A stretch of 64,000 bases of DNA from Psilocybe cubensis (lineage: Eukaryota). Below are positions 3,534 to 59,100 of this stretch, in pieces (position 1 is the first letter of the stretch; the number at the start of each line of letters is the position of its first letter). Below the pieces are notes generated by a model. It ran no database searches. It saw only the letters and a program-made list of their open reading frames with translations, and was not told the DNA's origin. The position numbers were made by a program, and so were the translations under genes. The stretch spans positions 2,914,001 to 2,978,000 of the forward strand of contig CM038999.1 of assembly GCA_017499595.2 (NCBI GenBank). Direction: 5' to 3'.

Positions 3534-5302
3534 TTACATACACTCATACCCAAGATAAGTTTTACCTACCGCCTTGTCATCATCAAACACGACTGATCTC
3601 AAAGCGCGTTCCATCGCCTCGTAGTTTTCGAACGGTGGGATAAACAAAATATGTTGGGGGACATCAATGTCCCTTAGTGGGAGAGCTTCGCGTTTGACCT
3701 TTTTTCCTGGTATAGTGACGCGTTGGATGTTTCCGTCTGGGGTTTTCATGACTTTGATCAGGTCACTCGCGGGTATGCGCACGCTTCCCGTTACATAGGT
3801 AAATAGCGCTCGTTGTTCCTCAGGAGCCCATGAGCCGGCAATTTTCCAGAACCAATCCAGGTGAATATCGGATTTAGAAGAAATTGAAGAGCCATTAACA
3901 GCCATGGAGTCCTTGTCAGTGCGTTTTTCGATTTTTTCATCGAACATGGTGTATGTTGCACAGTATTCTCTTGAAGAACTCGTCAGAACAGCAGACAGGC
4001 AAACGAAGATTATTCCTCCACTTACTTCTGAAGTGTGGTCACTCTTCCAAATAGCCGTTCCAGTTCAATGAGGGAATACCCTTCAAACATCTGACGATCT
4101 ACCACATTACAAAAGCCAAGTAAAAGGTAGTCTTTTGGGTCAAGTATCTTGGTATGTCCAAAATTAACGGGATTTCGTTCGGTGACTGGGCTAATGCGGG
4201 TGAGATCGCCATGTAAGATTGAGGCCAGTCTAGGGTCCACGAAAAACCCATGGAATACAGCCATCCCACAAAGCCATCCATATTTATGACAGAAAACCAT
4301 TAAGATACGTGTCCAAAGTGATCTCTTGAGTTTTTTAAAAGAACCGGTATCGTCTATCTCGAAGGGTCCATCTTCCTGCAGCAAATCATCTCGTACCAAA
4401 TCGAGCCATTCTCTGAGGTAACAACACGGTAAAATAAGTTACGATTACATCCTTCGCAAACTGGTATATGCTTACTGGACAGGCTCTTTGCAATCCAAAT
4501 CATCCTTAAACGTCACGCGAGGATAGCGACGCAGAGAGGCCCTTGGTGTCTCCTGTATTTTCCTGAGAAACGCAAAGGTATCTTTACGGATGACGCTCTT
4601 TCGCACGCTTATTTCAGAGGCTCCTTCTTGAATTCTGATAGAATTTCTTCTATTGAAGAATAAAATCTTGCGCATGAAGATATCCAAAGGGTCTGTCGCA
4701 AACATATTTTGCATTGGGTCGTCCCAAGTCGCAGTTAAATTGTTATAGTCAACAAAATACGGCCTGCCTTCTTCGTCGAATCTCTTGCTCCATCCAGGAG
4801 GACTCCTTGGATCGGTCCAACTTTGGGTCTGAGTATTGCGATTGACGAAACATATCCGAGAATCTGTGGTTACACCAGTCACCCATCCAGTAGGTAAATC
4901 TTTGAGGTTACGATTTTTGTCGCCGAGATCCAAGGTTGTTGGCTTGCTTTTCCATAACGTGGTCCTCGTGTAATTATTGGCATAGAATTTGCGATTCGCG
5001 CTGTCTATGCAAGGTACCCACCCAGTAGGTAGAGGTGTGCCATCTGTGTCGAGGGATGCATTGTTATCAAATACTGGTAACAAAGGTTTTTGAACAGGTT
5101 TCGATATTGATCCTTCTGTGTCCTCAGTTGTACTGGGTTTCCTCTCCTTGTGAGATGGTGCCCTTGTAAACCTGTTTGAGCGAAGTTGAGGCCAAGTGGA
5201 GCTGAGTCGTAGGCGACAACTGTTCAAACAGGAGGCCAAGCGATTAATTGGCCGTTTGAATCGAAAACTAAAGCCGAGTTCTGATGTTTCAAGGTATACC
5301 AT
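3534..5302 (-). CDS. Rsp5/NEDD4-derived 3xWW + truncated pseudo-HECT protein, copy 1
   Basis: Exons about 5302-4476, 4412-4026 and 3975-3534 with GTAAG donors and AG acceptors. Three WW repeats (LPTGW...W), a HECT-like QEWL motif, GMAVFHGFFVD, and WFWKIAGSWAPEEQRALFTYVTGSVRIP. The catalytic HTCFN motif is replaced by DVPQH. Confidence 0.85.
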
Positions 5303-5544
5303 GAAGGATTGAACGATACAATACTAACCAGTTCACTTGGGTTAAATAGGTAGAAAGGCTATAGAGAGGAACCACTAACCTTGTGTAACAGGTATTAATA
5401 GCGGATCCGTTGAACCCCGATACAACTTGGTGTGCATCGCCAGTCGCAAACCTCGATTACTTGTTAGGAGATCTGAGAACAATGACTTGTCCCAAATCAT
5501 CCTTCTAAGATGACATCAATTTCTTTGATATCAAAATTAGATCG

Positions 5545-6482
5545 CTACTCACCTATTTGTTGTATCTTGCAGTCCTGTTCAAAATCAGTTGCTAGATTGG
5601 GTTTAATTATAACACAGCTCAGTATCTGAAGCAACACATCAAATAAGTTCGAGCATTGATAGAATAATATGGTAACAAAAAAAAAGAAAAGGAAGAGCCC
5701 ATAGACAAAGACAAACTTTGCACAGACCATGTTCCTAGAATCTTTGCTTTGATTACAATTTATTACGCAAGATCAACCCGAGTAGAACTCCTACATACAT
5801 CAAACACTGTACCGCAAGGGTTAGCAGATGGACTGCAAACCGGGTGCTGGGATGCATTTCGGAAGACTGGATCAGTTATTGGCAGTTATTCTAATCACTG
5901 ACCAATATTGTCAAGGCAAAGAATGATTATAGGTCTCAGATACCCGTCCGAAGCGTAAACACAAAAGTTGATACATGGGGCAGAATGGAACGCAGCCTCG
6001 ATACCAACAAGAGCGATGTTTTGAGCAGGATACAGCCGAGTTCATTTTTGTGGTATTTTGACAATGACACAGGTTCTATTCGTTGTCAACAGGTGGCTGA
6101 ATAACGCGAAGCGGCCGTGGAGTAAGATAAATCCAAAGTGTACGAGATCTAGAAGATATGCTGGCACAAATAGGCGCACGTCGGAGTGATCAAAGTCAGC
6201 ACGAAAGATAAATCTTTGGAACCCTTGCAATCGTCACGATTGAGTTGATACAGGACGTCCGGGCCTTCCCAAACATAGTTGAGATAGAACACGAATATTC
6301 CCCAAATCCACCCGTTATGACAATGATTGATGTTAATCCTGAGTGTTAAATTTGAATGAGTATGAAAAAGTTTGCGCAATTGAAATGAAAACGAATGAGC
6401 AAGTTCCAACTTACCAAGTGATAATGCATGATTTCGGTCATGGAAATGGGGTTTGTATTAAATTGCTGAATTGTTCCAAGTT
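5545..6482 (-). pseudogene. 5'-truncated, frameshifted copy of the multi-TM membrane protein gene at 9347-11009
   Basis: Nucleotide and peptide similarity to 9350-10290 (YVWEGPDVL vs YVWGSPDIL; VRLFVPAYLLDLVHFGFILLH vs MRLFASAFVLIFVYFGFILLR). A 1-nt deletion near 6213 and the first two exons are missing. Confidence 0.75.
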
Positions 6483-6527: not shown

Positions 6528-6723
6528 TGCTAGGTCGTTCAAGCCATTCTGGGTCGTGTTCAAACACAATACGGGGCAACGCGTGTCGTAGATAACCCAG
6601 ACGTGTCACAGGAGTCTCTGCCCAGGGAGCAGGAGGCGAGCGCGTTAGCGTCGAGCAAAATCTTTGGCGCGCACCTGCCGCCTGCAGAGGTAGAGAAAAA
6701 GCAAACAGAGCGGCCAAGTTGTT
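6528..6723 (+). pseudogene. Decayed internal fragment of PRM1 (matches about 1527-1760)
   Basis: About 80% identical by eye to the PRM1 tail region (e.g. gtcacaggagtctctgcc, gcaggaggcgagcgc, gccaagttgtt). Has an in-frame TAG at 6589-6591 and small indels. Confidence 0.9.
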
Positions 6724-7146: not shown

Positions 7147-8986
7147 TTATTGCTTTATGATAGATCCTTCACGGACCTTCTGGGTCGATTGCACTCCCCC
7201 CCTCCCCCCCATACACACATCCTTACGGGAAGTTTTATCTATCTCATCATCCACATCAAATACAATTGATCTCAAAGTGCGTTCCATCTCTTCATAGTCG
7301 TCGAACGGTGGGATAAACAAAATATGTTGGGGGACATCATCATCCCTCACTGGCAAAGCCCCCCGTTTGAGCTTGTTCCCTGGAACACTAACTCGCTGGA
7401 TGCCCCCGTCTGGGGTTTTCATAATTTTGATCAGGTCTGTCGCGGGTACACGCACGCTGCCCGTTACGTAGACAAATATTGCTTGTTGTCCTTCAGGAGC
7501 CCAGGAGCTGGCAATTTTCCAGAACCAATCCAGATGGATATCGGATTCGGAAGAGACTGAAGATGCATTGACTGCTGTGGAGTCCTTGTCGCTGCCCGTT
7601 CCAATTTTTTCATCGGATATGGTGTACGTTGCACAGTACTCTCTAGAAGAAAGTACTCGTCAGAACAGCAGAAAGGTAAATGAAGATTATTCTCCCGCTT
7701 ACTTGTGAAGTGTGGTCACTCCTCCAAATAGCCGTTCCAGTTCAATTAGGGAATACCCCTTCAATGACCGGCGGTCTATCACATCATAGAAACCACGGAG
7801 AAACGAGCCCTGGGGGTCGGTTATATAACTGTGACTGGACATCTGAGCGTTTTGTTCAGTAATGGCGCCATTGCAGCTTAGATTGCGATGTAAGATTGTG
7901 ATCAATCTAGGGTCCACCAAGTATCCATGGAAGACTGCCATGCCATAAATCCACCCGACGTAAGTAAAGACTTTGAAGAAACTGGGTGTACTGAATGATG
8001 TGTTGATTTCTAAAAACCCGTTACCGTCTAGCACGAAGAACCCAAGGCGAGGCTCGAACAAAACATCTAGCAGCAAATTAAGCCATTCTCTGAAGTAACA
8101 ATCCGATGAAGATAAGCTAAGGTTACATTCTTCGCAAACTGTTATATGCTTACTGGACAGGCTCTTCGCAATCCGGATCATCCTTAAACGTGACATGAGG
8201 ATAGCGACGCAAAATATTCCTTGGTTTCTTGATTTTGCTGAGCACTGAAAAGGTGTCTGGGACAATGTAGCCCTTTCGAATTCTAATTTCAAAGACTCCT
8301 CGCCGAGTTTTGTTACAATGTTTCCTGTTCAGAAATAAAACCTTGCGCATATACATAGACAACGGGTCTGTCGAGAACGTCGTTTGCCTAGGGTCATCCC
8401 ACGTCGTGGTTCTACTGCTATGGTCAACAAAATACGGCCTGCACTTATGGTCGTATCGCTTTTCCCATCCGGATGGAAGTCTTGGGTCGGTCCATGTTGT
8501 AGTCTGAGTGATGTGATCAATGAAATATATCTGGGAACTTTCGGTTACTCCAATCGCCCATCCAGGAGGCAACTCTTCAAGGTCTGGATTTTCCTTGGAA
8601 ACATCGGAGGCCATCGGCGTACCTTTCCATAGGGTGGTTCTGGTGTGATGATTGGCATAAAATCTGCGATTTGTGCCGTCTATGCAAAGTACCCACCCAG
8701 TGGGTAGAGGTACATTGTCTGAGTTGGGGGACATGTTGTTGTCAAGTGACGATAGCAAGGAAGTTTTATCTGCGTAAACGGGCATTGGATCTGATCCTTC
8801 TACATGCATTCTTGTACCGGGTTTCCGCTTTTTTGGAAATTGTGCCTGCGAAAATCCCTTTGAACGAAGTCGAGGCCATGTGAAGATAAAACGTAGGCCG
8901 CAACCACTCAACCCAACGGCTACACGTATTAGTGGCCGCTTGAATCGAGAACTGGAGCTACGTTTTGATGATCCAAGTTGTAGCAT
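7147..8986 (-). CDS. Rsp5/NEDD4-derived 3xWW + truncated pseudo-HECT protein, copy 2
   Basis: ATG at 8986 has the same CCTTCATG context as copy 1. Three WW domains and the same two intron positions as copy 1 (PVQ|EWL, LHK|E). HECT-like motifs [26 protein letters not shown] and [14 protein letters not shown]. The extreme C-terminus is uncertain. Confidence 0.85.
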
Positions 8987-9346
8987 GAAGGATGGAACAA
9001 TACTATGTGTGGACTGATTCACTTGGGTTAAATAGGTAGAAAGGCTATATGTAAGAGCCACTTGAACTTTGATATATTCATAGCAGATTTGTTGAACACC
9101 GATATGGCGGTGTGCATCGCCAGTCGTGAGCCCCGATCGCTGGCGGCCAGGAGATGTAAGAACAGTGACTCGTCCCAACTCGTCTTTCTGAGATGATATC
9201 AGTATGATAGATTCCAAAATTAGATTATTATTCATCTATTCATTGTACAGTCCTGTGTAAGAAAGACTGCTGCGAGGAGGTCTAACACGTCTGAGTATGG
9301 ATGTTAACTATCAGTGCGTTAAATAATCCAAGGAAAGTCACATACA

Positions 9347-11009
9347 TCATATAAGTTTGAACATTGATAAAATAACCATAAACATCACGAAAAAGAGCCC
9401 GAAGAAAACGAACAGTCCAAGGGCAGAAACAATGATTGCGCCGACTATGCTTCCAAAATTCCAGATTTTGGTTCGACTATCATATATTGCGTATGACAAT
9501 CCAACTAGGACACCTAGATACATCAGACAGACCACAAGCGCTAGGAGATGACCACAATGTGGACCGTGTACTTGAATGTAGTTCGGAGGGCTACATCAGA
9601 AATTTTCAGCGAGTTCAATCTCCGACGAAGATGGGGAATTACCTACAAGGTAAAGACCAATCATTTAGATGTTTGAATCGCCTCCGATTTGTTTCCCTCA
9701 GGTTTGTATCAAAGATTGATACGGATTTTAAAATGGAATGTAGCCTCAAGGCCAACATGAACACCATTCTAAACAAAGCATGCTTCAAAGCGTTGTAGAG
9801 GTATGTAGCCAATGATACCAATTTGCCCATGATAGGTGGTGGAATTATACGAAGTGACCGCCGGAGTAAGATAAACCCAAAGTATACGAAGATTAGAACA
9901 AAAGGCTGACGCAAATAAGCGCATGGAGTGGTAAAAGCCAGAACGAAAGACAAATTCTTTGGAGTCCTTGGAATCATGGCGACTGGGCTTTTCCAAGATA
10001 TCCGGGCTTCCCCAAACATAGTAGAACCCGAACACCGATATTCCCAAGATACATGCCAAAGAAATAGTTATGCCAATGCTTGACATTAATCCTGGGTGTT
10101 AGATTAGAATAAGTATGAAAAGAATTTGCGCAATTAAAAACGAAACAACGCAGGGCATCAACTTACCAAGCGATAAGGCACGTTTTCGGTCGTAAAGATA
10201 GAATGAGGGCCATATTCGAGCGTTGTTGTTATATTCATAGAGTCCAAGAATATAAAATCTGTTGTATCAAATTGCTGAGATTTCCCAAGTTTGCTGCAAT
10301 TGAAAAATTCACCCACATTGTGGTTGTAGGCACGGCGAATGTCCAGTCCATCCAATTCATAACGACTGACTGATTAGTAAAATACGCCAGCATTGCCTTC
10401 GACAGTCCAAATGTCGACACAGTTGTGCACACAAGAAGTTGATAATAAGTGAATAATGGGTGCGATGCATACGCATGAAGATCATGTACACATTCCTTAG
10501 AAGAGTATCTTGGCCGCTTAAAAGTGAACAAGAACTCGAAGGTTGACCATACACAGTTCAAGCTTTCTACTTCGAAAAACCAAGCAAGACAGTTTGGGAG
10601 GTTTGATTGGCCTCGATCGATGGAGTCGTAGGAGCTCACACTAAAAAAGCTGTTATAGACCATGAATGTCAGAAATCCTTGAAATTGATAATACAGCGTT
10701 TGATACCACCACCTACATTGTAGCGATAACAGTCCCTGCCGCCCATTCGAGAGTAGTCGATATGAAAGTGTTTCCAGTTTGAAACGATATCGCCTTTGCC
10801 GTTCCGAAGGCGATCGTCGTCGTGATCACGGATAAACGATACGCAGAGACTTTTGGGTGCCAGCGACCATCATCTTGGTTGTATGCCGCCGATTCTGACG
10901 GTGTATTGTCTCCAACGTTGTCGATGAGTAAAGTCATGTTGCCGTTAGGCGCCTTTGCAGCGTTGTTTGTTCCTTTAATATTGCAATGCTTCAGCGAGCT
11001 CCAAGCCAT
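9347..11009 (-). CDS. Uncharacterised multi-pass membrane protein with an internally repeated TM unit; one apparent +1 frameshift (pseudogene or sequence error)
   Basis: Spliced exons encode HPKVSAYRLSVITTTIAFGTAKAISFQTGNTFISTTLEWAAG and the repeat HPLFTYYQLLVCTTVSTFGLSKAMLAYFTNQSVVMNWMDWTFA, each followed by an intron at the equivalent position. Further hydrophobic helices run to 9347. An extra base lies in the A4 run at 9900-9903. Confidence 0.65.
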
Positions 11010-11794: not shown

Positions 11795-13426
11795 TTATTC
11801 TGTAGTATCTGGATCACGCTAAGAAACAATTGACCATGAGTGCCCATCATTGTCATAAAGAACAAACCACTTACCCAGCTACAATCAACTATGGAAGATA
11901 TCAGACAATTTTCCATCTCCTCATAGCTGTTAAACGGAGGTATGAACAGAATGTGCTCCGGAGCATCATCATACTTTCTGGGAACGGAGCGTTCTGTATT
12001 CCCCAGAATGGTTACGCGTTGAATGTCGCCGTCCGGGGCTTTCATCACTTTTATCTGGTCTGTAACAGGAACGCGTTCCAGGCCTGTCAGGAATACAAAA
12101 AGCGCATGCTGGCGTTCAGGTGTCCAGGACTTCGTGATTGCCCAAAACCACTCGAGGTGGATGTCAGGTTCGGAGGAGCCTTCGATAGTTTCATCGGCAA
12201 TGGTATACGTCGAACATCGGTCCCTGGACATTATTGTTGGTATACAATTCCAAAACTTCAGCTTTCAGAAAACTTACTTCTCCAGGACGGTTATTCCGCC
12301 AAAAACTTGTTCAACCTCGGCTTGAGAATATCCTATAAACGAACGTCGGCCTATCAGATCATAAAATCCGTCAAGTAATGAATGTCTTTGTTTAGATGTG
12401 TTGGTAGTGTCAGAAGTGTCTTTGGGGTTATCGGATGTCCCACACAGAGAAGGATAGAAGAGCGGCACAAGTTTAGGGTCTAGTAGGTACCCATGAAAAA
12501 TAGCCAGTCCGTGAAGCTGGCCAATGAACTTGAAGTAATTCAGATAATCCGGTATTGTAGTACTGGATGAGGGATTGATCTTCAACTGCCCTGTGGATCC
12601 GTCCGGAAGGAAGAAACCAAGGTCTGGATGGAAAAATGTATCTAGCAACAGGTCTAACCAAGTACTGTTAGAACGAGATGAGTATTCTACACGAAGTTTG
12701 GGGGTCTGAGACTGACTTCACCGGATTTCTACACATCAAGTCGTCCTCGAATACGACGGATGGACGTCGTCTTAGATCCGCAAGCGACCTCAATTTACTG
12801 AAGATCGAGAAACTGTCCTGAACGATACGGCTCTTCTTAACTCTAATTTCGAAAACACCTGGCTGCAATTTCAGACGATGTCGACTGTTGAGATACAGAA
12901 CTTTCCGCCTAAGTTTCGAAAAAGGGTCTGTCACATCCAACTTTCTCCTAGGATCTTCCCAAGTCGTTGTTCTAGTATTATGGTCCACAAAGTACGTGCT
13001 CATTTTCCCAGGTACGACACGGATTTCCCAACCAGGAGGAAGCGGGCCCAATCCTTCGATCTCTTCTACGACATCGAATGGCGGAGGGTGGATCCACGTA
13101 GTTGTCCTGGTATTGTGATCCACATAGTATTTGCGCCCTTTGCTATCAATACGGCAAACCCAGCCAGCGGGCAACGGCGAGTCCTCTGGATAAGCCGACG
13201 ACCCATCGTACGGTGGCCGTGTCCATGTCGTCGTGCCCGTGTTATGATCAATGTAGTACTTGCGACCTTTACTGTCAAGCGCTATCTCCCAACCTCTGGG
13301 AAGACCCTCTTCATGAACGCCCATAGGGTTGAGCTGCGTCCGAGGATCCTGCGATCCAGAGACATGTTTCGGTGGAGAACTGGAAGGTTCCCTGTCATGT
13401 CTGGCCTTCGTACTGCTTTCCGGCAT
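11795..13426 (-). CDS. Rsp5/NEDD4-derived 3xWW + truncated pseudo-HECT protein, copy 3 (closest to Rsp5)
   Basis: Three canonical WW domains ([40 protein letters not shown]). HECT-like INPSS...[25 protein letters not shown] and WFWAITKSW...[23 protein letters not shown] replaces the catalytic motif. A probable extra intron at 11874-11819 gives the stop at 11795 (11764 if unspliced). Start Met inferred at 13426. Confidence 0.85.
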
Positions 13427-13894
13427 TAAATCAAAGCGGCGATTAAAGACGTTGGCGAGAGTTCTAGCTTTCGTTGGTGAAACGATAATCAGACAAGCGA
13501 AGCCCCTGTCGAGTTCCAAGGGGTTTGAAATTGTTGTCCAACTCAAGGTGTCCTAGTAATTGGAAACGTACAGCAGAGTGATGACCTGCAATCGACAGCG
13601 GCTGGCAGAGATGAGTAAACTGGAATGACAAGAGATAATTTGAGTGATACAACGTGGTTAGTTGTGGTTCGTTTAACGAGTACTGACACTACTTGTGGCA
13701 GTTGTGGCGTCGTGCCACTTCCATAAATAGACTCGGTTCGCTTATAAACGCTTCTTCAAGTTATAGGTGTAAACAATCAAATGAAGGTATTGTAATTCTA
13801 GAAAGTCGAATCTACAGTAAATATTACAAGCTCCAAGTACATGAGGGACAAAAATAATTTAAGATAAATTAAAGATAAGGCGGGCAATGGACAT

Positions 13895-16741: not shown

Positions 16742-19088
16742 ATGCGAGCTTCGAAAATTTATTCTACAAAATGGCTTCACAAAACCACCGATTGTACGAG
16801 GCGGTTTCACTCCGACATTCATCCTCGGCAAGAAATGCACGCCTCCAATTTACCTACGCAAACAGACCTTTTGGAGAAATACCGGGGCCTGGTGACCCTT
16901 GGGCATATTAAATACGACGAAGAACAGATAAGAGCTGTCATGAAGGTTGTTCTATCCACATTAATTTGACGATTATAAGAAAATTGACATCCTTGCAGCT
17001 TCGACGCCTGCACAAGGAGTTGATAGATTATGCCCCACCGGCGCATTCTGCCAACCTTCTGGGCCCACTTGCCCATCCGCCCTGTGAAGATCCAGAACAA
17101 GAGAAGCCTTGGTGGGTCTTCTCAGAGAAAGAAATGGAAACAAAGCAATTCGGGAAAGCGCTTGTCACACTCCGGGGCCACGCCGAAGAGTTAGGGGCTC
17201 TGGAAACGCCCAAAGTATGTATAGCAGGCTCTTGTGTTTTCGCCCAGTCCAGCTTATGCACTTTCTCTACCCAGGGTCTCCTTTTGACGGGACCTCCGGG
17301 GTCTGGAAAGAGTTTCTTGGTCGATCTTTGGTTTCAGTCCGTCCCAACGCCATACAAAGTTCGAAAGCACTATAGTCAGCTTGTGTTAGAGATCTATCGT
17401 GGAGTATGGGAGGAGACTAAACGACGGATGGGAGCACAGAATCAAATCGTATCCGAGGAAAGAGGTCCATGGAATAAGAACATTCGCGGACAAATGGAGC
17501 GCCTTTTGCGCGCAGGTTCTCTCCCTATTCGATGGGGAACTTTCAGACGCGTTTCCGCGGAATATACGAATCCATCCATCGCGTTCATGGTCGCAAAGAG
17601 ACTTTTACTCAGACATTGGTTGCTAGTCTTCGATGAAATTCAGCTTCTAGACGTCTCGAGTGCAAATTTACTTGCTGATGTGCTGACTTGGTATTGGCGT
17701 ATGGGTGGTGTCATTGTTGGCACTTCGAACAAAGTTCCTGATGAACTTTACCGCAACGGAGTTCAGCGGGAAAGATTGGAACCTTTCGTAGAGGCTCTGA
17801 AACTCAGGTGTCCTGTCACAGTTTTGGACGGTCAAAAAGACTGGCGGGAGGTACAAAGCGCGTCAGAGACCGACGGCCGTTCCTGGTTTACCTTTGATCA
17901 ACGTTCCGCCTTCAATGACATCGTTGAAAGATATTATCCGGTCGATAAAGGTTGGCGTTAACGTCATTTCCCCTGAAATTTTTACTGATGGGTTGTTTAG
18001 AGTCGACAAGTCGAATGTTGCGTGTGTTTGGCAGAACAATATATATCCCATCTGCTTCTGGACAACTGTGTAAATTCTCATTCTCTGAACTGTGCAACGA
18101 GGTAATTCTTTTTTAACCAGAAAATTTAGCCATGCGTCTCAGTTGTTTTGATATTACAGACACTCGGACCGGCAGACTATCTGACAATAGCATCTAATTT
18201 CTCAGTAATTGTTATAACTGACATTCCAATTTTACCGTTATCACTCAAGGATCAAGCGCGTCGTTTTATCTCGCTGATTGACGCGCTGTACGAATCCCGG
18301 TGCAGAATAATCTGTCTCGGTGAAACGACTCCAGACAAGCTCTTCTTTCCGGAATCATCTGCACACAGCGAAGTTGACATGATGATGGCCGAATCAGTTG
18401 CCGAGACGCAGGACATCTATAGACCCAACATATCATCCTACGATACACCTCAGATGCGTGAAGCACCGTCTGTTCCGAAAGTCGCGCTTTCCATTGACAC
18501 TCTGTCCATCTTTTCTGGTTCGTCTTTGTCTTGTTTTCTGACATTAACATGTGCGATCAACGAATTGACTTGAGTACCTGCTTCCATCTTTCAGGGGAAG
18601 AAGAACAGTTTGCGTTCAAACGCGCCCTGTCGCGTCTATCAGAAATGACGAGCGCGGCATACAACCGCACCAATCAGTGGTCTCCCCTTCCTCTGAGCGA
18701 CCGGAGGTGGGAAACAGAATTACCGCATACAGGCACAGTGGAATCGTCATCTGCTTTCATCGCCAAGGCAGAACCACGGGCGAGCGCAGAGTACGCTCAG
18801 CAGCATCAGCTTACGCAGCCTAGGCCGGAAGCGCCTAGTCGCTCGGCCACCTACGACAGTGACGATTTTGCCACGGAAGCATCGTGCGAAACCGTTGGTC
18901 CGTCTTTCAAGCGCCCACAGGCCCCGCGAATCAATGCAGACCATGTTTGGGGAGTTAGAGAAGACTGGGGGCCTGGAGCGAAAGCGTGGGGCTTGGGCCC
19001 TAAACTTTACGCCCGCCCCGAAAAAAGAACAAAGCTAGAAACAGACACGGAAGTCAAACGCAGCGTCGAGAGAACGCCAAAAGATTAG
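16742..19088 (+). CDS. AFG1: AFG1/LACE1 (ZapE)-like mitochondrial ATPase
   Basis: Walker A GPPGSGKS, Walker B LVFDEIQ, GTSNKVPDELYRNGVQRE, LGPADYL, DQARRFISLIDALYE and EEQFAFKRALSRL across several introns. The start is inferred from a presequence-like MRASKIYSTKW...RRFHS. Confidence 0.88.
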
Positions 19089-32231: not shown

Positions 32232-35200
32232 CTATGCATGGTCGGCATTGATTTGACGAGCGGTTGCTGCAATCCTGAAGTTGGTTGGCACAACCGTGTG
32301 TCTGAAAACAAGCAGGGTGAGGGAAAGAGGTGATTGGTCAAGGGCACATACGTACTCGTAGTAATTTTGGACAGCATTGCCGTCCATCACAAGGATATCA
32401 CCCTATTTTCGTGGTCAAAAGACTAACTTTTTTGCGGTACGAAATATCTTACATGGCGGAGAACGATGCTTAAAAGTATTCCTCGCTTCCTTCGTTCTGG
32501 GTCATGTTTCGCGAGGAGGCGAAAGTGCATTAGAGCTGGTGACCCTAAAGACAAACCTGCAACCACAGGACCAAGTCCCTTTTCATTATCGCTGTGAAAC
32601 TTGCAATGAGCAGAATGAGTAAGTTTAATTTGTATATGATATTGCTAAACTGACTCACTGCCATTTTTTGCCTCTCCATGTAGGCGGCGCTAGATGAAAG
32701 CGGATTTTAATCAGAAGAAATGGATCTAAAGAGTTTGCGGACCTCAAGACTTCGTTAAATTGGGCAGGGATATTCAGAGCCTGCAAGACACGTTTCTGCA
32801 TGAAGTCACGGGCGCGAACAACCGCAAGGGGAGCTTGGTCAAAAGGTACAGTGTGCGCATCTCCTCCAACGTACTGGACTCAAACGAATGAAAACGTGTA
32901 AAACTATGTTGCAAGGTCTACATACTTTGTATGGCGCACCCGCTAGGAACACACGTCAAAAATGAAACCGATACCATGAAAAACACACACACAATTTTGT
33001 GAAAAATAATTAGTCAACAAAGAACCCCTGCCTATACTCTAATGATCAGTAGGGATAACAATTGACGATGAAGGGGTATACATTTGTGCTTATAATTGAG
33101 GATTGTGAGAAAACAATCAAATCGAGTTATAAAGCATTCCGACTCACAGCTCTCATAGGCCAACGACGAAATTTAAGATCACCACTCATCGCTTGCGTCT
33201 GATAGTCTGAAAATATTGAATCTGCTTCTTCTCTGCCCAACGCGTTACCGGGTTGTATATGATGGATTTTGGCGCTGAAGAAATGTCAATGTTTCGATTT
33301 CCGGTCAACAAGATTGGCCGACCTATTGTGGGGTAAGATGAAGGTGACCACAGTGCCTCTGCCTTTGTCATGTCGGAAACTTCTTGGAGACAGTTGAATA
33401 ATATCTGTGTATACAGCAATCAGTGGATATACATAACGGTAGCAATATTTATCTACCAGGTATAGAGTTTAGAGAATAATTTTTGATACTCGACGATGGG
33501 GTTTGATATAGAAGGCCTGACGCCTCACGAATTGCAGGTGCAGACGGCACCTGGTTCTGGATATAACATAGTCAGTCAGTATAGAGAAATTCAGACCAAA
33601 CACGTACACCGCAATTTCGACACTGCCACATTTCCCATTGATACCTACAAGCCTTTTAATCACCAGGTTGGTGGCAAAGTTCTGTAAACGGACCTGCAAG
33701 AAAGACGGCCACATTTATCGCAGTGAAAGCCTCTCGTAAAAGCATAGGCCGTTTTGTCTTTGATATCTAAAGAGCGGACAGGTGCAGGCATCAGGGTCCC
33801 AAAACCTACTGGAATTGGCATCGAAGGGGTCAGCTGAATGAAGTCACGAGAGTATTCAAGATTATCGGGGAGCATTTGTCCGTTAGGCAGCGTAAAGAAC
33901 TTGGAGCAATCTGGGTTTAGGCATGTCCAGGACAAGTCATACACTTGAGGATAAGGTTTGGAACAAAAAAGACAAGATTGCTTGATTCTTTCTTGGGAAC
34001 CAAGGAGTGACCTTCGAGACATAAGATCTCATTTCTTCCAGAAATAAATGAACTCACTTCTTTGAGTCAATATCATCTTCGTCGTCGGCTTTATGACTGA
34101 GAGAAGATAATGTTTAGTCAACAAGAGAATGTGAGGTAGAAAAGGGGGTAATTGATCAACCTTATAATGCCCTTCAGTTCTGATGCAGCATCTGAGTGAG
34201 TAAACGTAAGAGATATAATTTAATTGAAATGATCGAAAAGAGAAGGTACCATGGTTATTAGACCACTGGGACATAACAGTCGTAGTAAATCCTGTCGCGT
34301 TGCAACCCTCTGCAATAATTTCAGCACGAGCGGTGTCATTCAAGTCATCATTGGCAGCACTGGGAACACTGAAACAACTTTCGTCGCTTGCTTCTTTATG
34401 CCACCACGGAATGCCCTTATCAAAGTACGGGCAAGTTAATTCTCGGAATGGTAATGTAGTAGTGATTGATTACCTGGTCATCGCACCATCTGAATGCAAA
34501 TTTGTATCTTACAACGCGGCCGCTCTCGTTATTTGACGGTTGGTATTCAGCTGATTGCATTAATTTAGAACGGTGCAAGTTCAAGTAGCGAATTCGCGCT
34601 TACCCCAAGCGTCCGAAATCGTGTAAAATCCAAGAACAGCATACGAGACATTTTTTGCTTTGAGATCATAAGGGAAAAGAGCATATCTTTCGTCCACTAA
34701 TAGTACGAGTGGTCGATTATTTTGATAAGTATTCCAGAGCGCACGAACTGATTTATCTTGCGCCAATTGGTCAGTGGCTGGCTGAGACGATAGTTGTCCT
34801 TGCTTGGAGTGGATACTTTCAGCCTTACCACCTCTGTACAAGCAATGAGAACAGGAAAAAAAGATGGATAAAAGAAAGAAGACAGACCCGTGGGAAATGA
34901 TTAAACGACCACCGTGCGCAAAGGTATCACGTCTGGATGATATGCTGCATTTCAGCAAATCGAAAATATGTGGATATTTCACGGATCGCACCTGGCAGGA
35001 AACCCCCCCAAAAGATATCCTTTGGCCACATTATGAGCATGGTAGACACCACCTTGATAGCTGCGAAACCAGTCGAATGATTCGCAGATCTCTTGCCGAG
35101 ACTATTGAAAGCATTAGTTGTAGTCTGTATTTGAAGCCGAGTAAGCTAACCTCGGCCCAAAGGGGGGGCAAAAATTGCAATGGAGTTTTGGGAAACCTGC

Positions 35201-37496
35201 AAAGGGTATCGATAACGTCGTCCTGTTCATTCTCCACATCTTCTGCTTCCAAATAGGTTAAATCAGCAGGAAGGTTCATGTCATCATCAAAAGGCATGAT
35301 TGAAGTATTCTCGTCGTCCATACCCACTTCTCTGAGGTATATGGGAAAAGGCTTTGAGGAAAAACCAGCATCTGGTTGTTGTAATTCTTCTTCGAGTATT
35401 TCGACGTGTTGATTTACGTGGTATGCAGAGGTAGAAGGGCATTCGGATGCCATAGAGTTAGATTGCACAGCATTTGATTCAAGCACAGCTGTGGAGGCTT
35501 CAGCTACTGTATGTTCAGAATTTACTGAAGAGACGGAGTGTGGAACCAAACTTGTCGTCATATCGCCTTGACAAGTCGCCGAATGTTGAATTCCAGCAGG
35601 CGTTGGAACTGTTACTTCCATCAGTGGCAAAGTTCGAACCGGAAGATCAACCTTGTTCGTTTGAATATCTAACGACTGGAAGAAATCTAATTTGTCTGAC
35701 TGTTTGGAACGTTCGGATTGTCGGTCAAACAAAAGGGCATCACTATCCCTCTCCTGCGAAGTAATAGGAACATTGTCCGATTTGAATCGTTGATTTATTG
35801 CGCTTCCCGTCACGGAAGCAGATATCTTGCGAAAGCGATTTTTTGTTTGCTTTTTCTTGGTGAAAGATTTCGCGTCGACCACTGAAGATGGTACCGATAG
35901 ATGAATGGTATTATCCATTTTCTTGCGATGGCTTTTCGCTGAATGAAAATTAAAGCCATCATTTATGGGCTTTCCGTTGACTGACGTAGATTGCTCCCCT
36001 TTCTGTGTAGCAGATTCAACGGGGAGGGACGAGGAATCCAATTTGATCCGATATTGCTTCATATTCGACTCCGAGGATTTTTTTCTTTTCCTACTTAATG
36101 CACCAGATATTTGAGAGGATCGCAGATCGCATTCTTTTTTCTTCCTGGGTCGTGAATTTGAAGCCGGGCCCCCCGTTGCATTTTGAGTATTGGACGACAG
36201 CAACGTAACAGACATACAAGTGTTCATATCCTTTGATTCAATCTCCCTGATTCGGGGAGACCGTCTAGGTTCTTGCCACTCGTGCAACTTAGAGTCCGTA
36301 TTCGTGGTCACCTTGGCACCCTTTACCCTCCAGGTGGCACCGTCAGTCTGTGTTTCGTCAGCATCCATGATAGCCTCGTGTAATACAACGTCCTTGGTAT
36401 CGCCTGCTATACTGTTATCAAGAGGGACTAACTTCGGTACAGAGCCTGTGCCTTTTGTTTGCTGATCATTGGAAAAGAGTGAGGTATTATCAAGATTTTT
36501 GACTCTTTGATTATCCATTGTCAAAATATTTGGCGTGGAAGACTGATGTAGATCTTGACTCAAGTCCTGGTTGGCCTTCCGAGGTCGTAATTTGCGAACA
36601 TATAATAAAGACGGTGCTGCATGCACTGGAACCCATTTCTTCTTTACCGAGCCGGCGGAAATTTTGCTGGTCCCGCCATCGGCATCACAGACAGTGCGTA
36701 ATCGTTTTGAAGGATGAACTGATGTAACGCTAGATTCAATATTATTGATAGACGACGGGTTGGTAGTCCAAAATTTTCGTTTATTTTGGGAGGAATATAG
36801 CCTTTCACTGCGGTGGTATGTTGGACTCGATGAACTCTTGGGTGGTACAGTTGACGAAGTTTCCATCACAGAACCGGTCGATCGTCGAGGGTCACTTGTC
36901 AGCGCCACAAGGTTGTGTGGATTCTTATACTTGGGCACAGGCGCACTTCCACATCTGACGGTATCTGATTTGGTGTGAATGTTTTTGTTAGATTTCAATG
37001 ATACCATGACGTGTGAAGGTGCCGCGTTGGCTGATAGTGATCCCGGACGTTTTGCCTGGGCTTTATCCGAAGCTACTTTCGAACCCTTCTGAATCACACA
37101 TCCTGTTCTGAAGCGCCATTTCCTTCTAGTCCGTTCCTCGTCAAGAAACCTCCTAGCATGATGAAATCCTTTACTGCGATTAATCCAATGAAATTCAATG
37201 AAAAAGCGTGCCGATGCGTTATTTGCCAAAATAGTTTGTCCATTGGGGCCATTATTCGCAGGAAAGGACAATTCTAGCCAAGCGTTAACGGCATCGAGCT
37301 TATGGTTTGTGTCACTACAGGCAGAGAAGTAGTAACAATGCACACATACGTTGTTTCTGATCAAATCTTGAGCACATCTGTCAATGTCGTCAGCACTTAT
37401 GTTGTTGGCACCGGAAATAATCTGTTTCTCAAATAGAGATCGAAGTGGTTCTTGGTTAGCAATGCTCTTGTCGTAAATGTCTATGGGGTTCCTCAT
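32232..37496 (-). CDS. Large AlkB-family 2OG-Fe(II) dioxygenase with SRA-like and Cys-cluster regions and a long disordered N-terminus
   Basis: Spliced 3' exons give FHSDNEKGLGPVVAGLSLGSPALMHFR...LRHGDILVMDG..VQNYYEHTVVPTNFRIAATARQI*, i.e. HxD, distal H and RxxxxxR. Upstream lie CxxC clusters (CLFC, CLNPDC, CDKC) and FRSYQGGVY/GRLIISHGGG segments. The start codon is uncertain. Confidence 0.8.
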
Positions 37497-37976
37497 TGGA
37501 TTGGAAATTTGAAAGTAATATTCTATCAAAGGTGATCCAGGAAAAAGTTGCGCTAAGCCAACTGACACTTTACATGCAGTGAGAAATAAGCAGGAACTCT
37601 TGTGGGGCTTGACTAAAAACCAACTTGAGTAAGTTTGCTGACAGCAAGATTTGCAATGACATACCCTTGTTCCTTCCTCATTTGTTCATCTCATTTGCTC
37701 CCACCGACAAAAAATTGAATGTTAAAGAAAAAAATAAGAGATGAAAGTGGAGGTTCCGAACAAAGGTCTTGGTTTTTCCAAGGACAATGATCAATTTCGG
37801 GACACGTGATAAAATAGTTTAAAGCTTGCCCACTATAAACCCAATATAAACCTGAGGCCGAGGCCTGAATCTCAATTAACCAGTGCTTTCAATTCCTGTA
37901 GCAGTCATCTTGGACATCCCAAGTCCTCCACTTTATTTTATTGAAAAGAAAGTGATAATCTAATACCAAAACCAAT

Positions 37977-44717: not shown

Positions 44718-46670
44718 ATGACTGCCAGTCGTATATTTGCGTTGCTAATAGGGATTGACTCCTACAAATCGGGAAATGTTTGGAATCTTCATTCTTGCGT
44801 AGAAGATGCCAAAAAAATGAAGCGTTGGTTGGCGAACGAGCTGAATGTCCCAAAAGATCACATATGTCTTCTTCTGGACCACCATGCCACGAAAAATAAA
44901 ATAGAAGATTCGTTCATGGCGCACCTAGTCAACAATCCTTCCATTGAACCGGGTGATTCCATTTTTCTATATTTTGCGGGGCATGGAAGTTGCATGCCTG
45001 CTCCTGTTGGTTGGTTCCTTGGCCAAGAGGAGAAAAAGAAGGGAACTGTCGAAGTCCTTTGCCCTTACGACCACGACACTAAGTCCCATCATGGCCGGGT
45101 CTCAGGTATCTCCGACCGCTCACTCTACGCCATGCTTGACGACCTTGCCTCTGTTAAAGGGGACAATATTACACTCTTTTTCGATTGTTGCTTTTCACCC
45201 AATCAAAATTCAGTTAACGATCGCGATCGCTCCATCACTCGTTGGACCAAGACGACGAAGGCCACCTCAGAGGATTTGTATCGTGACCTATGGGTCGGCG
45301 CTCGTGGCAAACTTCAAAACTCCAGTTATGGGTTTTTCAATCCGTTATCTGTGCATACGCTGCTGGCAGCATGTCCGCCTGGGCACAAGGCTGTCGAGGG
45401 CAAAGATGGAGGCCGTTTTACTTCATGCTTCCTTGAAGCAGCATCGCACATGCCTCTTTATCGCACAACATATACTGCTCTTATCGACTACCTTCTCGAA
45501 ATCGATGGGGAATCTCAAAGATTCGTCTGTTTTGGTAGTCAGAAAGGGAAGGTTTTATTCAATCAGGTACCATTCACGCCCGATAGCCTCTTTACCCCTA
45601 CTACCTTCGATAAAGTCTCCAAGTTGCTTAAGGTTAACCTTGGCACAATTCATGGCGTTGTCGAGGGCAGTGAAATATCTCTGCATCTTCATAACTACCG
45701 TTGTTCTTTCAATCCACCGATTGCCCTTTCAGTTGTTTCTGAAGTCAATCCTACTAGCTGTGTCGCCCGGATTAAACTTCAAAACATCGACATACCTGAA
45801 TTGTGCTGGGCGAAAGTCATCCAGTGGAACAATCGGCGGCCTTTTTGCGTCTATTTTAAATCGACACTTCTTTCTCTACTACGTATATTTAAACTGAAGA
45901 AGTCGTTTCCGAAAGAACAAGATTCCGTGACTCCCTTCAAAAGTGGTGTCAGTATCTCAAGGGTCACGAACCCCAATACCGCAGACCTTTTACTCTCACT
46001 CAGACAGAGATGCTCTGTACTTGCGCAGAAAAATGCTGTGTATCCTGAGAAGGATCGTCATTTTGTCGAGATCGAAGATAAGAGCCCACTTGCCGTTATA
46101 GACGATGCTGCTCGTTTCAATCTTCATCTTCTTCGTCACAATGTCGATAACCCTTTGCGGGACCTTGTAGAGATGGAAATTTCTCGTTTGGATCCTATTT
46201 CTTGGTCGAAGGTTGGGCATAGTTATCTCCTTAACGGAAGGGCGACGCTGATTCACCAAAACGGAGCCGTCTATGACATCGCTCTTCACAACAAGTCCAA
46301 AATTGATATATGGCCATATCTATTCTACATGGACCCTAACTGCTACCGCAGCACCTTGATATATAAACCAGATTCCTATCAGTGTGCACCTCTCCCGCGT
46401 GATGGCTCTCTCAGTATTGGGGCTGGTCGATTTGGTGCGGAAGCTCTGTCCTCAGCAGGCAAAAATAATGTCAACCTTGCATATCTTAAACTTTTTCTAT
46501 CATCCGTCCCAGTTGAAATGGAGCTCTTGGAACAAGACCCACTCCCATATTGGATTGATCAGAAAACGCAAGTAGCAAGGAATATTCTCACGGATTCCGG
46601 AAGAGAAATAATATGGGATACAGCACTTGCGTCTCTCACATTCCTCAGACATCCAGATGGAAATTCTTGA
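44718..46670 (+). CDS. Caspase-like (peptidase C14/metacaspase-type) protein with a long C-terminal extension
   Basis: Intronless 650-aa ORF. IFALLIGIDSY, LHSCVEDA, LYFAGHG (catalytic His), TLFFDCCFS (catalytic Cys), LLAAC and GRFT are all present. Confidence 0.88.
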   Translation: MTASRIFALLIGIDSYKSGNVWNLHSCVEDAKKMKRWLANELNVPKDHICLLLDHHATKNKIEDSFMAHLVNNPSIEPGDSIFLYFAGHGSCMPAPVGWFLGQEEKKKGTVEVLCPYDHDTKSHHGRVSGISDRSLYAMLDDLASVKGDNITLFFDCCFSPNQNSVNDRDRSITRWTKTTKATSEDLYRDLWVGARGKLQNSSYGFFNPLSVHTLLAACPPGHKAVEGKDGGRFTSCFLEAASHMPLYRTTYTALIDYLLEIDGESQRFVCFGSQKGKVLFNQVPFTPDSLFTPTTFDKVSKLLKVNLGTIHGVVEGSEISLHLHNYRCSFNPPIALSVVSEVNPTSCVARIKLQNIDIPELCWAKVIQWNNRRPFCVYFKSTLLSLLRIFKLKKSFPKEQDSVTPFKSGVSISRVTNPNTADLLLSLRQRCSVLAQKNAVYPEKDRHFVEIEDKSPLAVIDDAARFNLHLLRHNVDNPLRDLVEMEISRLDPISWSKVGHSYLLNGRATLIHQNGAVYDIALHNKSKIDIWPYLFYMDPNCYRSTLIYKPDSYQCAPLPRDGSLSIGAGRFGAEALSSAGKNNVNLAYLKLFLSSVPVEMELLEQDPLPYWIDQKTQVARNILTDSGREIIWDTALASLTFLRHPDGNS

Positions 46671-56146: not shown

Positions 56147-59100
56147 TCATTGAAGAGGGATCCTCATTGGAAGGGCCATCTTGATGGTCTGAAAGGCAAA
56201 GCGTATGCCATTATGAAAAGCCCAGAGCATAGACACTGAAATTCGTAGTCAGGTTTGTTTTCACGGTGATTAATTAGAATAGAATATACTCACAAAAAAG
56301 AATTGGTAACCAAAACAGCAATAACATACGATCATCTGAAAGCTAGTGATTAATAGGTAGTCAAACCGATAAAGGGAGAACTCACGTTTTTTTTGGGTTT
56401 GGTTTGCAGGAGGCTGATATCCAAATGATTCAACGACTTTATCTGGCACCGGAGTGCTATCGTATCCAACAGGGCGAATTTCGGATGAGGGGCGGGTGGA
56501 GGAGGAAGAAGGCTCCTGAGCTTCAGCATCGTCTTGAGTCTGCGCTGATATCTGTACTGACTCATTATCGCCTGCACGAGGAGTATACACAGGAGGGGGA
56601 AGTTCCTCAGTTTGCTGTCTAGCAGTCGTTGCCACTGCCAATGCGACCCATTTTTCCCAAGTCGCACGCCACTCCTGTGCAGCTCGCAAAGCAACAGCAC
56701 CAGCGCCCATATTGGGTGGACCACCCTCTCCTTCATTGTGCATCCTTTCTCCTGGAGCTCCTGTTCCTGGCTCGCCACCAAAAAATGAGGGCCAGCCTGG
56801 CATCATTGGCACAAATACAGGGAACACCATGGGCAGTTGTGGCAGTGCACCCCATGGGACGGCAGGAAGATCAGGCAAGTGAGGAAGATGTGGTAAAGGA
56901 AGCTGGGGCATATTTGGGATGATTCCTTGGGCAGGTATCTGGGCTAGGGTGCGCTGAATCATTTTCTCCATGAAGGAGGCCGCACGCTTGGCGTCAGCAG
57001 TGTTTAAATCAACCTCTCCTTTCTTGTCGTCTTCGCTGCCAACATCGATGGTGGGAGGAGGTGGAGGAGGAGGAGGTGGTGGTGGAGGCGTAGCCGCTCG
57101 AGACACATCCACCGATCGTCTGGGTGTTCCTCGACCAGACTGCAGTAGGCTCAGTCGGGACAGTCGGCGAGAGACGCGACGGTTTATAACGCGGCGAGAT
57201 GGAAGGTCATCATCTCCCTCAGCATCTCCTAGGTTGGCATCCTCGTCTTCCGACCATTCGCCATCACTGTCACTATCACAGTATAAAGACGAAGGTAATT
57301 CTTCAAAGAACCCTGTGGTGGCGATCTCATATGCCGTCTTTCCTAGAGAATTGACAATTTCCACGTCGGCTCCACCCTGCAATAAGATGTTAGAGCACAA
57401 CTTCGACTGGGAAAGAGCGGCAAAGTGGAGTGGAGTGAAACCATTACGATCTCGAGCATCGACATCTGCGCCGTGATTTACAAGGAAGCGCGTTACATGA
57501 GAAAGTCCCAAAAAGGCAGACAAGTGAAGTAGTGTTTGTCCAGTCGCAGATGGGTAGGAAATGGCTTGTGAGGTGGGGATTGCGTTAGGTGCTGCGCTGC
57601 CTATGGAAGTATCCAGGACCGTAAGTAATTGAAGGAGTTGTTTCTCAAAATCTTTGATATCTCCTTGACCTTGATTGAATAGAAGTGGACGAATTGATGG
57701 AGAGGTTCCCATTTGCATCATACCAGTATTATTACCGTGGTTTGAATCAGAGTTGTCACTTCCAGCGGTCCCCACAATTCTCATGGCGACATTCTTAGCG
57801 TCTTCGATTTTGCCCGTCATTTTGAGGCCTACTACTTGCAAAGCAAGTTCCATCCTAACAACATTAATAAGCAACGATTCCAGTAAGACAAAGAAAAGAC
57901 TAACAAAGCACGGTCTGATTCATCAGAGTATGTAAATAATGAAGGAGGAGTATGTGTTTGCTCATCAGCCTTCGCAAACCCTTCAAACCAGACAGCGACA
58001 ACACCTGGCATTGACCGAGGAGGCAGTACACAAACCAGTGTGTTGTCGCTCCACCGCTGCGTCGAACTAGCGGCCACATCACCGAAGACACAATTAAGCT
58101 GAACTGTTGGATGAAAATTTGCCCCGAGAACTGTAACTTCGATGCCACCATGAGTTGGTCCAGAGTTAGGTATAAGACGATGTATCGTAGGTGGCTGTAC
58201 TTGGACTGTTTGGGATGATTGTGTGGGGTCAAAGAACATATATGGCATGGAATGAGGTAAAGTTGACATGATCAAATTTGCGGGGTGTTGCGTTGCAGAT
58301 GCTGTGGAAAGCCGCCTATCACCCTGCAAATCCGATGCCCCAAAGCTAAGTTCGGGCATTTGGATATCGGAATTACCATCTAGGGGTGTGGCAAGGGTAT
58401 CTGGGGACGACGTTTCGGATCCATGCACACCATCGTGTAAAGGTGGAGGAATATTTGAGGTAGAAGATTCTAAAACTACCCCAGTCTGAAGGTTTGAAAA
58501 TGGTGTCGAGGCTCTCGTTGCGGGGAGTGGAGAATAGGATGTAGACGGAGAAGGAGCACTAGAGACACTGCCCTCACGCGAGACGCGGTTAGGTTTGGAA
58601 GAGGAATCGTAGGGCTTTGGTCGGGGTTTCATTGGGCCTGTGTTTGATGATAACTCTTTTTTACGCCTTGAGGGTGCTCTGGAATCTGAGATAGAGGAAA
58701 GCTCGTTGATCATCCCGCTGCCTTGCGCCCAATCCGGAGGCTCCATAGCAGTAAAGCTTCCAATTAATTCATGAGGTTTGTTGGCAGTCGACGTTTTATG
58801 ATCGTCGGTTATCATTATCGGTCTCGACATACCTGAGCCCACAATCCGGCCTGCATGATCCATCATCGAGAAATGCACATTGAACCCAACCTTTTCACGA
58901 TGATGACGACAGTAACAAGTAATCCGAAGAGGAAGAACAACGGAACCGGTTGAAAAGTCCAGGATTTCTGCACAGTTGAACTGGATAATGCTCGTAGTAT
59001 CTTCATGATGCTTTGGTCTACTGGGCTTGCTAGGATCGCCCTCAACTTCGGATTCTGAGCGAGCGGGACGCACTCGGGCGGCTAACTTTTTTGCCACACG

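Follow-up and report, generated by a model that had tools for sequence, protein, structure and literature searches.

In HECT-type ubiquitin ligases (E3s), the ubiquitin-conjugating enzyme (E2) docks on the N-lobe's small subdomain and ubiquitin passes to a cysteine of the C-lobe. The WW domains of Rsp5/NEDD4 ligases bind PPxY motifs. Pseudoenzymes are well known among kinases, phosphatases and E2s, the last represented by the ubiquitin E2 variants (UEVs). According to the accessible part of PMC3077247, the E2-binding site is hosted by the small N-lobe subdomain (helices alpha6-alpha8 and strands beta5-beta6), the beta5-beta6 hairpin of this subdomain is also part of the ubiquitin exosite, and Tyr605 and Tyr610 of NEDD4 are exosite residues. 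Here we describe three tandem minus-strand genes, called copies 1 to 3, in a 64,000-nucleotide stretch of the Psilocybe cubensis genome (assembly GCA_017499595.2, contig CM038999.1, positions 2,914,001 to 2,978,000), hereafter the window. Each encodes three WW domains followed by a HECT-like domain. We consider it reasonably probable, from their sequences, that these genes are expressed, selectively maintained, non-catalytic descendants of Rsp5/NEDD4 (pseudo-ligases) that would act by WW binding of PPxY partners.

The Rsp5/NEDD4 ligases, with their C2-WW-HECT architecture, are clear homologues of the copies. Three WW domains and the HECT fold are shared, and the matches in the PDB, with Foldseek E values as low as 2e-24 and VIA Z 22-24, are NEDD4L, SMURF1/2, WWP1/2 and Rsp5. 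Unlike these ligases, the copies have lost the C2 domain, the catalytic cysteine, the exosite tyrosines, the conserved GLDYGG stretch and the entire small N-lobe subdomain; their three WW domains remain, as do the large N-lobe subdomain and the C-lobe. By homology, then, they are NEDD4/Rsp5 derivatives, and by the defining chemistry, as far as it can be read from the residues present, they are not to be filed as ligases, three defining features of the HECT ligases being absent. Other WW-HECT-like proteins without the cysteine occur in the fungal suborder Agaricineae, where they are annotated as hypothetical or, automatically, as HECT-type transferases. These share the architecture, the replaced catalytic loop and the lost exosite with the copies and form one clade with them, but they keep the interval that holds the small subdomain (85-93 residues, folded in the model of the Galerina protein), and most carry a TLLSDFEDLS tail.

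Three further systems invite comparison. Among solved structures, the copy 3 C-lobe best matches Schizosaccharomyces pombe Pub2 (9b55_C, E 5.7e-8), which we take to be a short Rsp5 paralogue of WW-HECT architecture lacking C2. In contrast to the copies, the Pub2 structure is a mimic of E2-ubiquitin-E3 transthiolation, so Pub2 is an active enzyme with both cysteine and E2 dock. UEV proteins (Uev1/Mms2, Tsg101) serve as a working analogy, being a ubiquitin-system fold without its cysteine that is kept as a binding module, although the fold and the step in the cascade are different and there is no homology. UEV1 is named as an E2 variant without catalytic cysteine in the accessible portion of PMC7647121, which also describes Leishmania HECT13 and HECT14 as 'possible pseudo-HECTs', partial HECT domains that are unlikely to function as E3s. 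Those are fragments of 60-69 residues set aside from the gene list, unlike the conserved, WW-bearing, two-lobed family considered here. Beyond this remark on partial pseudo-HECTs in Leishmania, a literature search that took in the accessible part of a 2026 HECT review brought up no conserved HECT family without the cysteine. Fungal WW-HECT proteins without the cysteine were likewise absent from the accessible text of PMC3738095, PMC3673628, PMC13196369 and PMC7647121; the supplementary figures of PMC3673628 list architectures and might include such proteins.

The loss of the small subdomain can be followed in copy 3 (11795..13426, minus strand; 489 amino acids), where a single frame (12277-12664, minus strand) reads uninterrupted from ..LVPLFYP through a linker into LLDGFYDLI... 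The first motif (12451..12510, minus strand; residues 289-308, 20 in all) comprises the helices with which the large N-lobe subdomain ends ahead of the junction; its counterpart in the model of the P. cyanescens orthologue, P0144, forms helices 276-292 and 299-310 with a predicted local distance difference test score (pLDDT) above 89. The linker (12379..12450, minus strand; residues 309-332) puts 24 low-complexity residues in place of the small subdomain. It shows 44% identity to that of P. cyanescens (11/25 columns) and is a loop with pLDDT ~56 in the P0144 model. The second motif (12295..12378, minus strand; residues 333-360), modelled in P0144 as helices 325-341 and 351-359, is the helix by which the chain re-enters the large subdomain and approaches the hinge. 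Motif and WW coordinates were computed by hand. When the exon 2 translation was compared to solved structures with phmmer, residues 2-91 aligned with SMURF1 HECT residues 73-159 and residues 95-126, including the second motif, with 232-263, and NEDD4L gave a like result, leaving ~65 residues of the reference HECT without a counterpart. Similarly, the 306 positions of the Pfam HECT profile were matched in the copy 3 exons only at 2-79 (exon 2, E 2.7e-11) and 209-293 (exon 3, E 1.2e-7), with positions 80-208 unmatched.

To place this gap in a wider context, we measured the interval between a conserved Tyr and a conserved Gln anchor in an alignment of 70 sequences. The interval is 22 residues in P0144 and 24 in each of copies 1 (P0001) and 2 (P0266), as against 85-93 in all 11 other proteins without the cysteine and 87-88 in 54 of 56 canonical NEDD4/Rsp5-type proteins; of the remaining two, one has 79 residues and one lacks the region. 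In copy 3 the two anchors are 22 residues apart, and the piece that is missing amounts to ~64 residues. A reading of the DNA from its letters alone (the sequence-only reading) had given about 25 low-complexity residues for the linker, equally short linkers for copies 1 and 2, and an interval of roughly 90 residues for Rsp5/NEDD4, and these counts agree with it, down to the 22 linker letters that it quoted, which are exactly present. It had also named the missing piece as the small N-lobe subdomain that docks the E2; the identity of the piece follows from the alignment and its role from the portion of PMC3077247 cited above. We further scored a profile of the three exon 2 translations against 1.84 billion representative proteins. 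Of the 143 hits, 90 show the two motifs separated by 55-101 additional residues (median 63), 50 have one motif, and only three are contiguous with a short linker, namely copy 1 itself and two unnamed open reading frame (ORF) fragments. A word-index search with exon 2 for longer proteins had returned none, whereas later searches did find relatives. The small subdomain is thus absent from all three copies and from the P. cyanescens orthologue, and from this anatomy we infer that E2 binding would be lost as well.

Predicted structures agree with the alignments. In the AlphaFold2 model of P0144, which is 82% identical to copy 3 (pLDDT 79.8), helix 299-310 runs into a short low-confidence loop and then into the 17-residue helix 325-341. 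In the model of the Galerina protein P0145 (pLDDT 78.1), the same interval is filled by a helix, several strands and a 34-residue helix. Aligned with VIA-align on NEDD4L (3jw0_C, residues 575-950), 314 residues of P0144 (169-482) gave Z 22.5 with a root-mean-square deviation (rmsd) of 10.3 over 259 aligned residues, and 374 residues of P0145 (172-545) gave Z 21.7 with rmsd 11.4 over 273. The bilobed HECT fold, N-lobe and C-lobe, is kept in the P0144 model, which aligns to HECT structures with Z of 22-24; 7m3q_A, for one, gave Z 23.6 and rmsd 5.4 over 281 aligned residues.

A subdomain can also go missing on paper, if an exon has been overlooked or the assembly is faulty. Relatives do seem to carry an intron within this region, as similarity breaks off 22-29 residues past the anchor Tyr in all five unnamed ORF fragments from relatives, which continue in unrelated letters, just as an intron at that place would produce. 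However, in copy 3 the flanking motifs are 72 nucleotides apart in one open frame, contigs from two public runs, X9 and X10, cross the linker without a joint, the P. cyanescens protein is equally short, and a tblastn search within the window found the three copies only and no further piece. Across 12277-12664, X9 and X10 contigs follow the genome colinearly and differ from it by 0 and 1 letters, as the sequence-only reading would require if no exon had been missed. On the open frame, the jointless contigs and the tblastn result we reject this explanation, to which we attach next to no probability.

The same contigs bear on the gene models. Copy 3 has four exons (13426-12717, 12664-12277, 12222-11875 and 11818-11795, the last including the stop). 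Its introns of 52, 54 and 56 nucleotides, GT..AG on the minus strand, were predicted from the sequence first, and X9 and X10 contigs skip exactly 12665-12716, 12223-12276 (where the cut is ambiguous by one base) and 11819-11874. These joints were absent from contigs of the DNA runs X11 and X5 that cover the region. X9 and X10 belong to one study and bear a closely related strain label; they are treated as RNA on the strength of the intron-exact joints. The first ATG of copy 3 lies at 13426, downstream of the contig starts at ~13706-13712 and 41 codons before the first WW domain. Although copy 3 is the best conserved of the three and is supported by spliced contigs, no identical protein came up in searches over protein lengths of 414-2000 and 268-1078 amino acids, and its full model seems to be missing from public annotation, unlike those of copies 1 and 2.

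Copy 2 as annotated (7147..9235, minus strand; introns 8153-8090 and 7702-7643; short linker 7804-7884) is the 654-residue record P0266, 'E3 ubiquitin-protein ligase Nedd-4' of Psilocybe cubensis. Copy 1 (3534..5302, minus strand; introns 4475-4413 and 4025-3970; short linker 4127-4207) is the 549-residue record P0001, 'hypothetical protein JR316_0002460' of the same species. Both records are exact translations of the coding sequences that we rebuilt from the window. The two genes sit in a duplicated unit of ~3 kb (3537-6439 vs 7210-10191) with 70% DNA identity. Both introns of copy 2 are likewise skipped by X9 and X10 contigs. Copy 1, the most diverged of the three, has nothing in X10 and, in X9, one partial contig with ~8% differing letters that jumps to copy 2. 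As to the 5' end of copy 2, the annotated start (Met at 9235) falls at a 48-nucleotide stretch, 9187-9234, that RNA contigs skip and that has no GT..AG ends. The skip may reflect an indel between strains and not an intron, and copy 2 may in reality begin at the Met aligned with the copy 1 start.

The remaining losses concern the sites at which ubiquitin is bound and transferred. In copy 3 the three WW domains are recognized without difficulty (12950..13303, minus strand; residues 42-159; Pfam WW E 6.3e-39 in three stretches). No C2 domain precedes them: in copy 3 exon 1, as in P0144, Pfam reports nothing besides WW and HECT. Ten residues at 12601..12630 (minus strand) align with NPYYGLFEYS of NEDD4L, and the ubiquitin-exosite tyrosines are replaced there. 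At the two exosite columns Tyr is present in 54/56 and 56/56 canonical proteins, compared to 0/14 at both columns in the family defined below, and the beta5-beta6 hairpin of the exosite falls within the deleted piece. The former catalytic loop (11932..11985, minus strand; residues 446-463, 18 in all) was placed by alignment to the C-lobes of Pub2, SMURF2 and SMURF1. No cysteine is found in this loop in any of copies 1-3; at the catalytic column, 55 of 56 canonical proteins have C and all 14 family members have P. With E2 dock, cysteine and exosite gone, every surface for receiving or passing on ubiquitin is absent. Given the HECT mechanism, such a protein would not be expected to recruit a charged E2 in the canonical way or to form a ubiquitin thioester.

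The single canonical row without the cysteine is P0300 of Cantharellus anzutake, a C2-WW-HECT protein of 932 amino acids with a full interval of 87 residues. It also has Pro at this position, in a loop that reads unlike that of the Agaricineae family, and may represent an independent loss of the cysteine or an annotation error.

Loss of the usual cysteine would not by itself end catalysis if another nucleophile, or a route independent of E2, had taken over. Two candidate cysteines, one where the C-lobe begins (..DRCSTY..) and one close to the C-terminus (..DCSW..), occur at positions common to many family members. Against this, the DRCSTY cysteine is absent in Pholiota, Crepidotus and Crassisporium, the DCSW cysteine is absent in Gymnopilus, Crepidotus, Cyclocybe and in copies 1 and 2, and the E2 dock and exosite are gone. 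We therefore regard a surviving E3 activity of this kind as highly improbable.

A search with exon 1, followed by a profile search with the family alignment, identified the relatives of these genes. Together they form a 14-member family devoid of the cysteine, in which every protein has three WW domains and a common replaced loop but neither C2 nor the exosite tyrosines. The loop reads D-D-x-P-E/Q-H-I-L-F across the family where canonical proteins have the cysteine loop, with P-E/Q-H in 14/14. A gap in profile score separates the family (at least 453 bits) from canonical ligases (at most 440 bits). Among its members is P0144 of P. cyanescens, a protein of 488 amino acids that is 85% identical to copy 3 over exon 1, with the overall identity given above. 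By record names, further sources are Galerina marginata, Gymnopilus junonius, Hebeloma cylindrosporum, Flammula alnicola, Pholiota conissans, Agrocybe pediades, Cyclocybe aegerita, Agrocybe chaxingu, Crepidotus variabilis, Crassisporium funariophilum and 'Psilocybe cf. subviscida'. All six species that were looked up belong to the Agaricales, suborder Agaricineae.

In a careful maximum-likelihood tree of 23 rows and 822 columns, the family nests among Agaricomycete Rsp5-like proteins as one clade with support 100/100 and a stem of 2.36 changes per column. The four P. cubensis and P. cyanescens rows form one clade (100/100) adjoining Galerina (91/88), in which copies 1 and 2 are sisters (100/100) on a stem of 1.54, with an end branch of 0.86 for copy 1. 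'Psilocybe cf. subviscida' groups with Flammula and Pholiota and retains the small subdomain; the deletion is thus not common to everything labelled Psilocybe. A second element has been trimmed in the P. cubensis and P. cyanescens proteins, which lack the C-terminal ..TLLSDFEDLS.. tail that follows the HECT-like domain in most other members (P0145-P0151, P0154, P0005 and P0011).

The simplest history compatible with this tree has two steps. The cysteine, the exosite and C2 would have been lost once, in an ancestor within the Agaricineae, and the small subdomain would have been deleted once, in the P. cubensis/P. cyanescens lineage, before tandem duplication gave rise to three copies. The linker of 22-24 residues in Psilocybe, whose genes have no intron at that place, would fit a deletion of the relatives' putative intron along with the first part of the following exon, or a shortened splice form that became fixed. 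The sequence-only reading had proposed a shared in-frame deletion, and this holds for all three copies, whose frames are intact, and for the P. cyanescens orthologue. Its coupling of the E2-site loss to that of the cysteine stands insofar as both parts are missing. It does not stand as a simultaneous event: the loss of the cysteine is older and is common to the 14-protein family.

It had also taken the deletion for a remodelled scaffold and not for random damage. The opposing view is that these are decaying duplicates or pseudogenes, with the deletion as damage that followed the loss of the cysteine. Copy 1 lends itself best to this view. It is diverged (the conserved His is gone from all three of its WW domains, exon 2 gives no Pfam hit at E up to 1 and so no HECT match, and its end branch is long), and it is hardly seen in RNA contigs; the linker, moreover, is poorly conserved. 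Decay, however, does not account for three frames that are open over 489, 549 and 654 codons with GT..AG introns in phase, for the splicing of copies 2 and 3 as predicted, or for an orthologue of matching architecture in P. cyanescens at 82% identity. Broken frames, lost splice sites and lack of transcripts, the marks of a pseudogene, are not found in copies 2 and 3, and the frame of copy 1 is open too. The ratio of nonsynonymous to synonymous divergence (dN/dS, NG86) between copies 1 and 2 is 0.42 at dS 0.69, not ~1; when copy 3 is compared to either of the other two, dS has reached saturation. Conservation also differs sharply between regions. Identity of copy 3 to P. cyanescens is highest in the WW region (95%, 114/120), followed by the C-lobe (87%), the N-lobe (76-78%) and the N-terminus (62%), and lowest in the linker, and this uneven pattern indicates selection, as drift would leave no such pattern. 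Intact frames and splice sites, spliced transcripts and uneven conservation thus speak for remodelling, and we judge decay very unlikely. Copy 1 is the weakest case for a live gene.

The conservation of the C-lobe raises a different alternative, in which the proteins are scaffolds for a new partner and do not compete with Rsp5 at all. The Asp-Asp-x-Pro-Glu-His loop of the C-lobe would form a new binding or even catalytic site, and the WW domains would do no more than deliver it. Consistent with this, the C-lobe is second in conservation to the WW domains alone, the replaced loop is nearly invariant in all 14 family members, and the family stem is long, as after a change of function. However, both models (P0144 and P0145) give the loop pLDDT values under 50, so that no pocket can be argued for, and structure searches with Foldseek and VIA gave similarity to HECT domains alone. 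We consider this scaffold unlikely, though it is the leading alternative.

We therefore return to non-catalytic descendants of Rsp5/NEDD4 as the favoured interpretation. The retained WW domains would bind PPxY-bearing adaptors or cargo of the kind bound by Rsp5, and in Rsp5-type pathways the protein would serve as a decoy or competitor, or else as an adaptor that does not ubiquitinate. Judged by the parts kept and lost, the copies probably bind ligase targets without tagging them. The conserved C-lobe may offer a binding surface for a further partner.

Several observations weigh against this interpretation. The dN/dS of 0.42 denotes only moderate constraint. Copy 1 has the WW and exon 2 defects described above and is barely covered by RNA contigs, and RNA support as a whole consists of contigs of two runs from one study whose RNA type is guessed on the record. 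The structural models are of orthologues and not of a protein encoded in the window, and canonical HECTs were in their alignment. A pure decoy leaves both the conserved C-lobe and the replaced loop, with its P-E/Q-H in every member, unexplained, which is why a further partner is suggested. Finally, in the 11 other members a well-conserved small subdomain has long outlived the cysteine, so the piece had some use with which Psilocybe could dispense.

A more far-reaching version of the decoy interpretation, which we put forward as tentative and rather doubtful, casts these proteins as 'anti-ligases'. In one gilled-mushroom lineage, an Rsp5 duplicate would have turned into a WW decoy that shields PPxY adaptors or cargo from ubiquitination, and would have shed its ubiquitin-handling surfaces stepwise, first the cysteine, exosite and C2, and then, in Psilocybe, the E2 dock and tail. 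The minimal form would have been amplified in tandem to diversify its targets, and the replacement loop would be the site for a new partner. If true, this would be the first conserved HECT pseudoenzyme family with a defined regulatory role.

We also recorded other features of the window. Immediately upstream of copy 2 lies a multi-exon gene (9640-11009, minus strand) whose ORFs appear hydrophobic by eye and of which 4-5 introns are confirmed by RNA contigs. A partial look-alike (6149-6457, minus strand) lies upstream of copy 1, within the ~3 kb duplicated unit, and Pfam assigned no family to four ORFs of this gene and the partial duplicate. One RNA contig spans both this gene and copy 2; a fusion of the two was considered and rejected, as the upstream exons are in another frame and end in a stop. 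A repeat of 193 nucleotides with 79% identity (1568-1760 / 6536-6723) probably explains a backward joint of RNA contigs (6656 to 3000) as an effect of the limits of the stretch. The neighbouring ORFs are ordinary fungal genes, among them a caspase-domain (Peptidase_C14) protein (44718-46670, plus strand), an ankyrin-repeat ORF beside an ORF with SPT23/MGA2-type DNA-binding and IPT/TIG domains (56270-59145, minus strand), and an AFG1-like ATPase (16912-17961, plus strand). Several long ORFs of the window, such as 109-2988 and 35031-37685, matched no Pfam family.

In conclusion, these genes complete a natural dissection series of the HECT domain, which runs from canonical Rsp5, through 11 proteins that lack the cysteine and exosite and retain the small subdomain, to the minimal Psilocybe form without an E2 dock. 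The series indicates which parts of a HECT domain can go while what is left keeps its fold and remains under selection. Names in the databases are also corrected, since copy 2 is recorded as 'E3 ubiquitin-protein ligase Nedd-4' and UniRef lists the family as 'HECT-type E3 ubiquitin transferase'. A WW-HECT protein that is expected to bind without ubiquitinating would be a ready tool for probing how Rsp5 adaptor networks are buffered. What the Psilocybe genes and their Agaricineae relatives offer is a testable pseudoenzyme series rather than a new principle.

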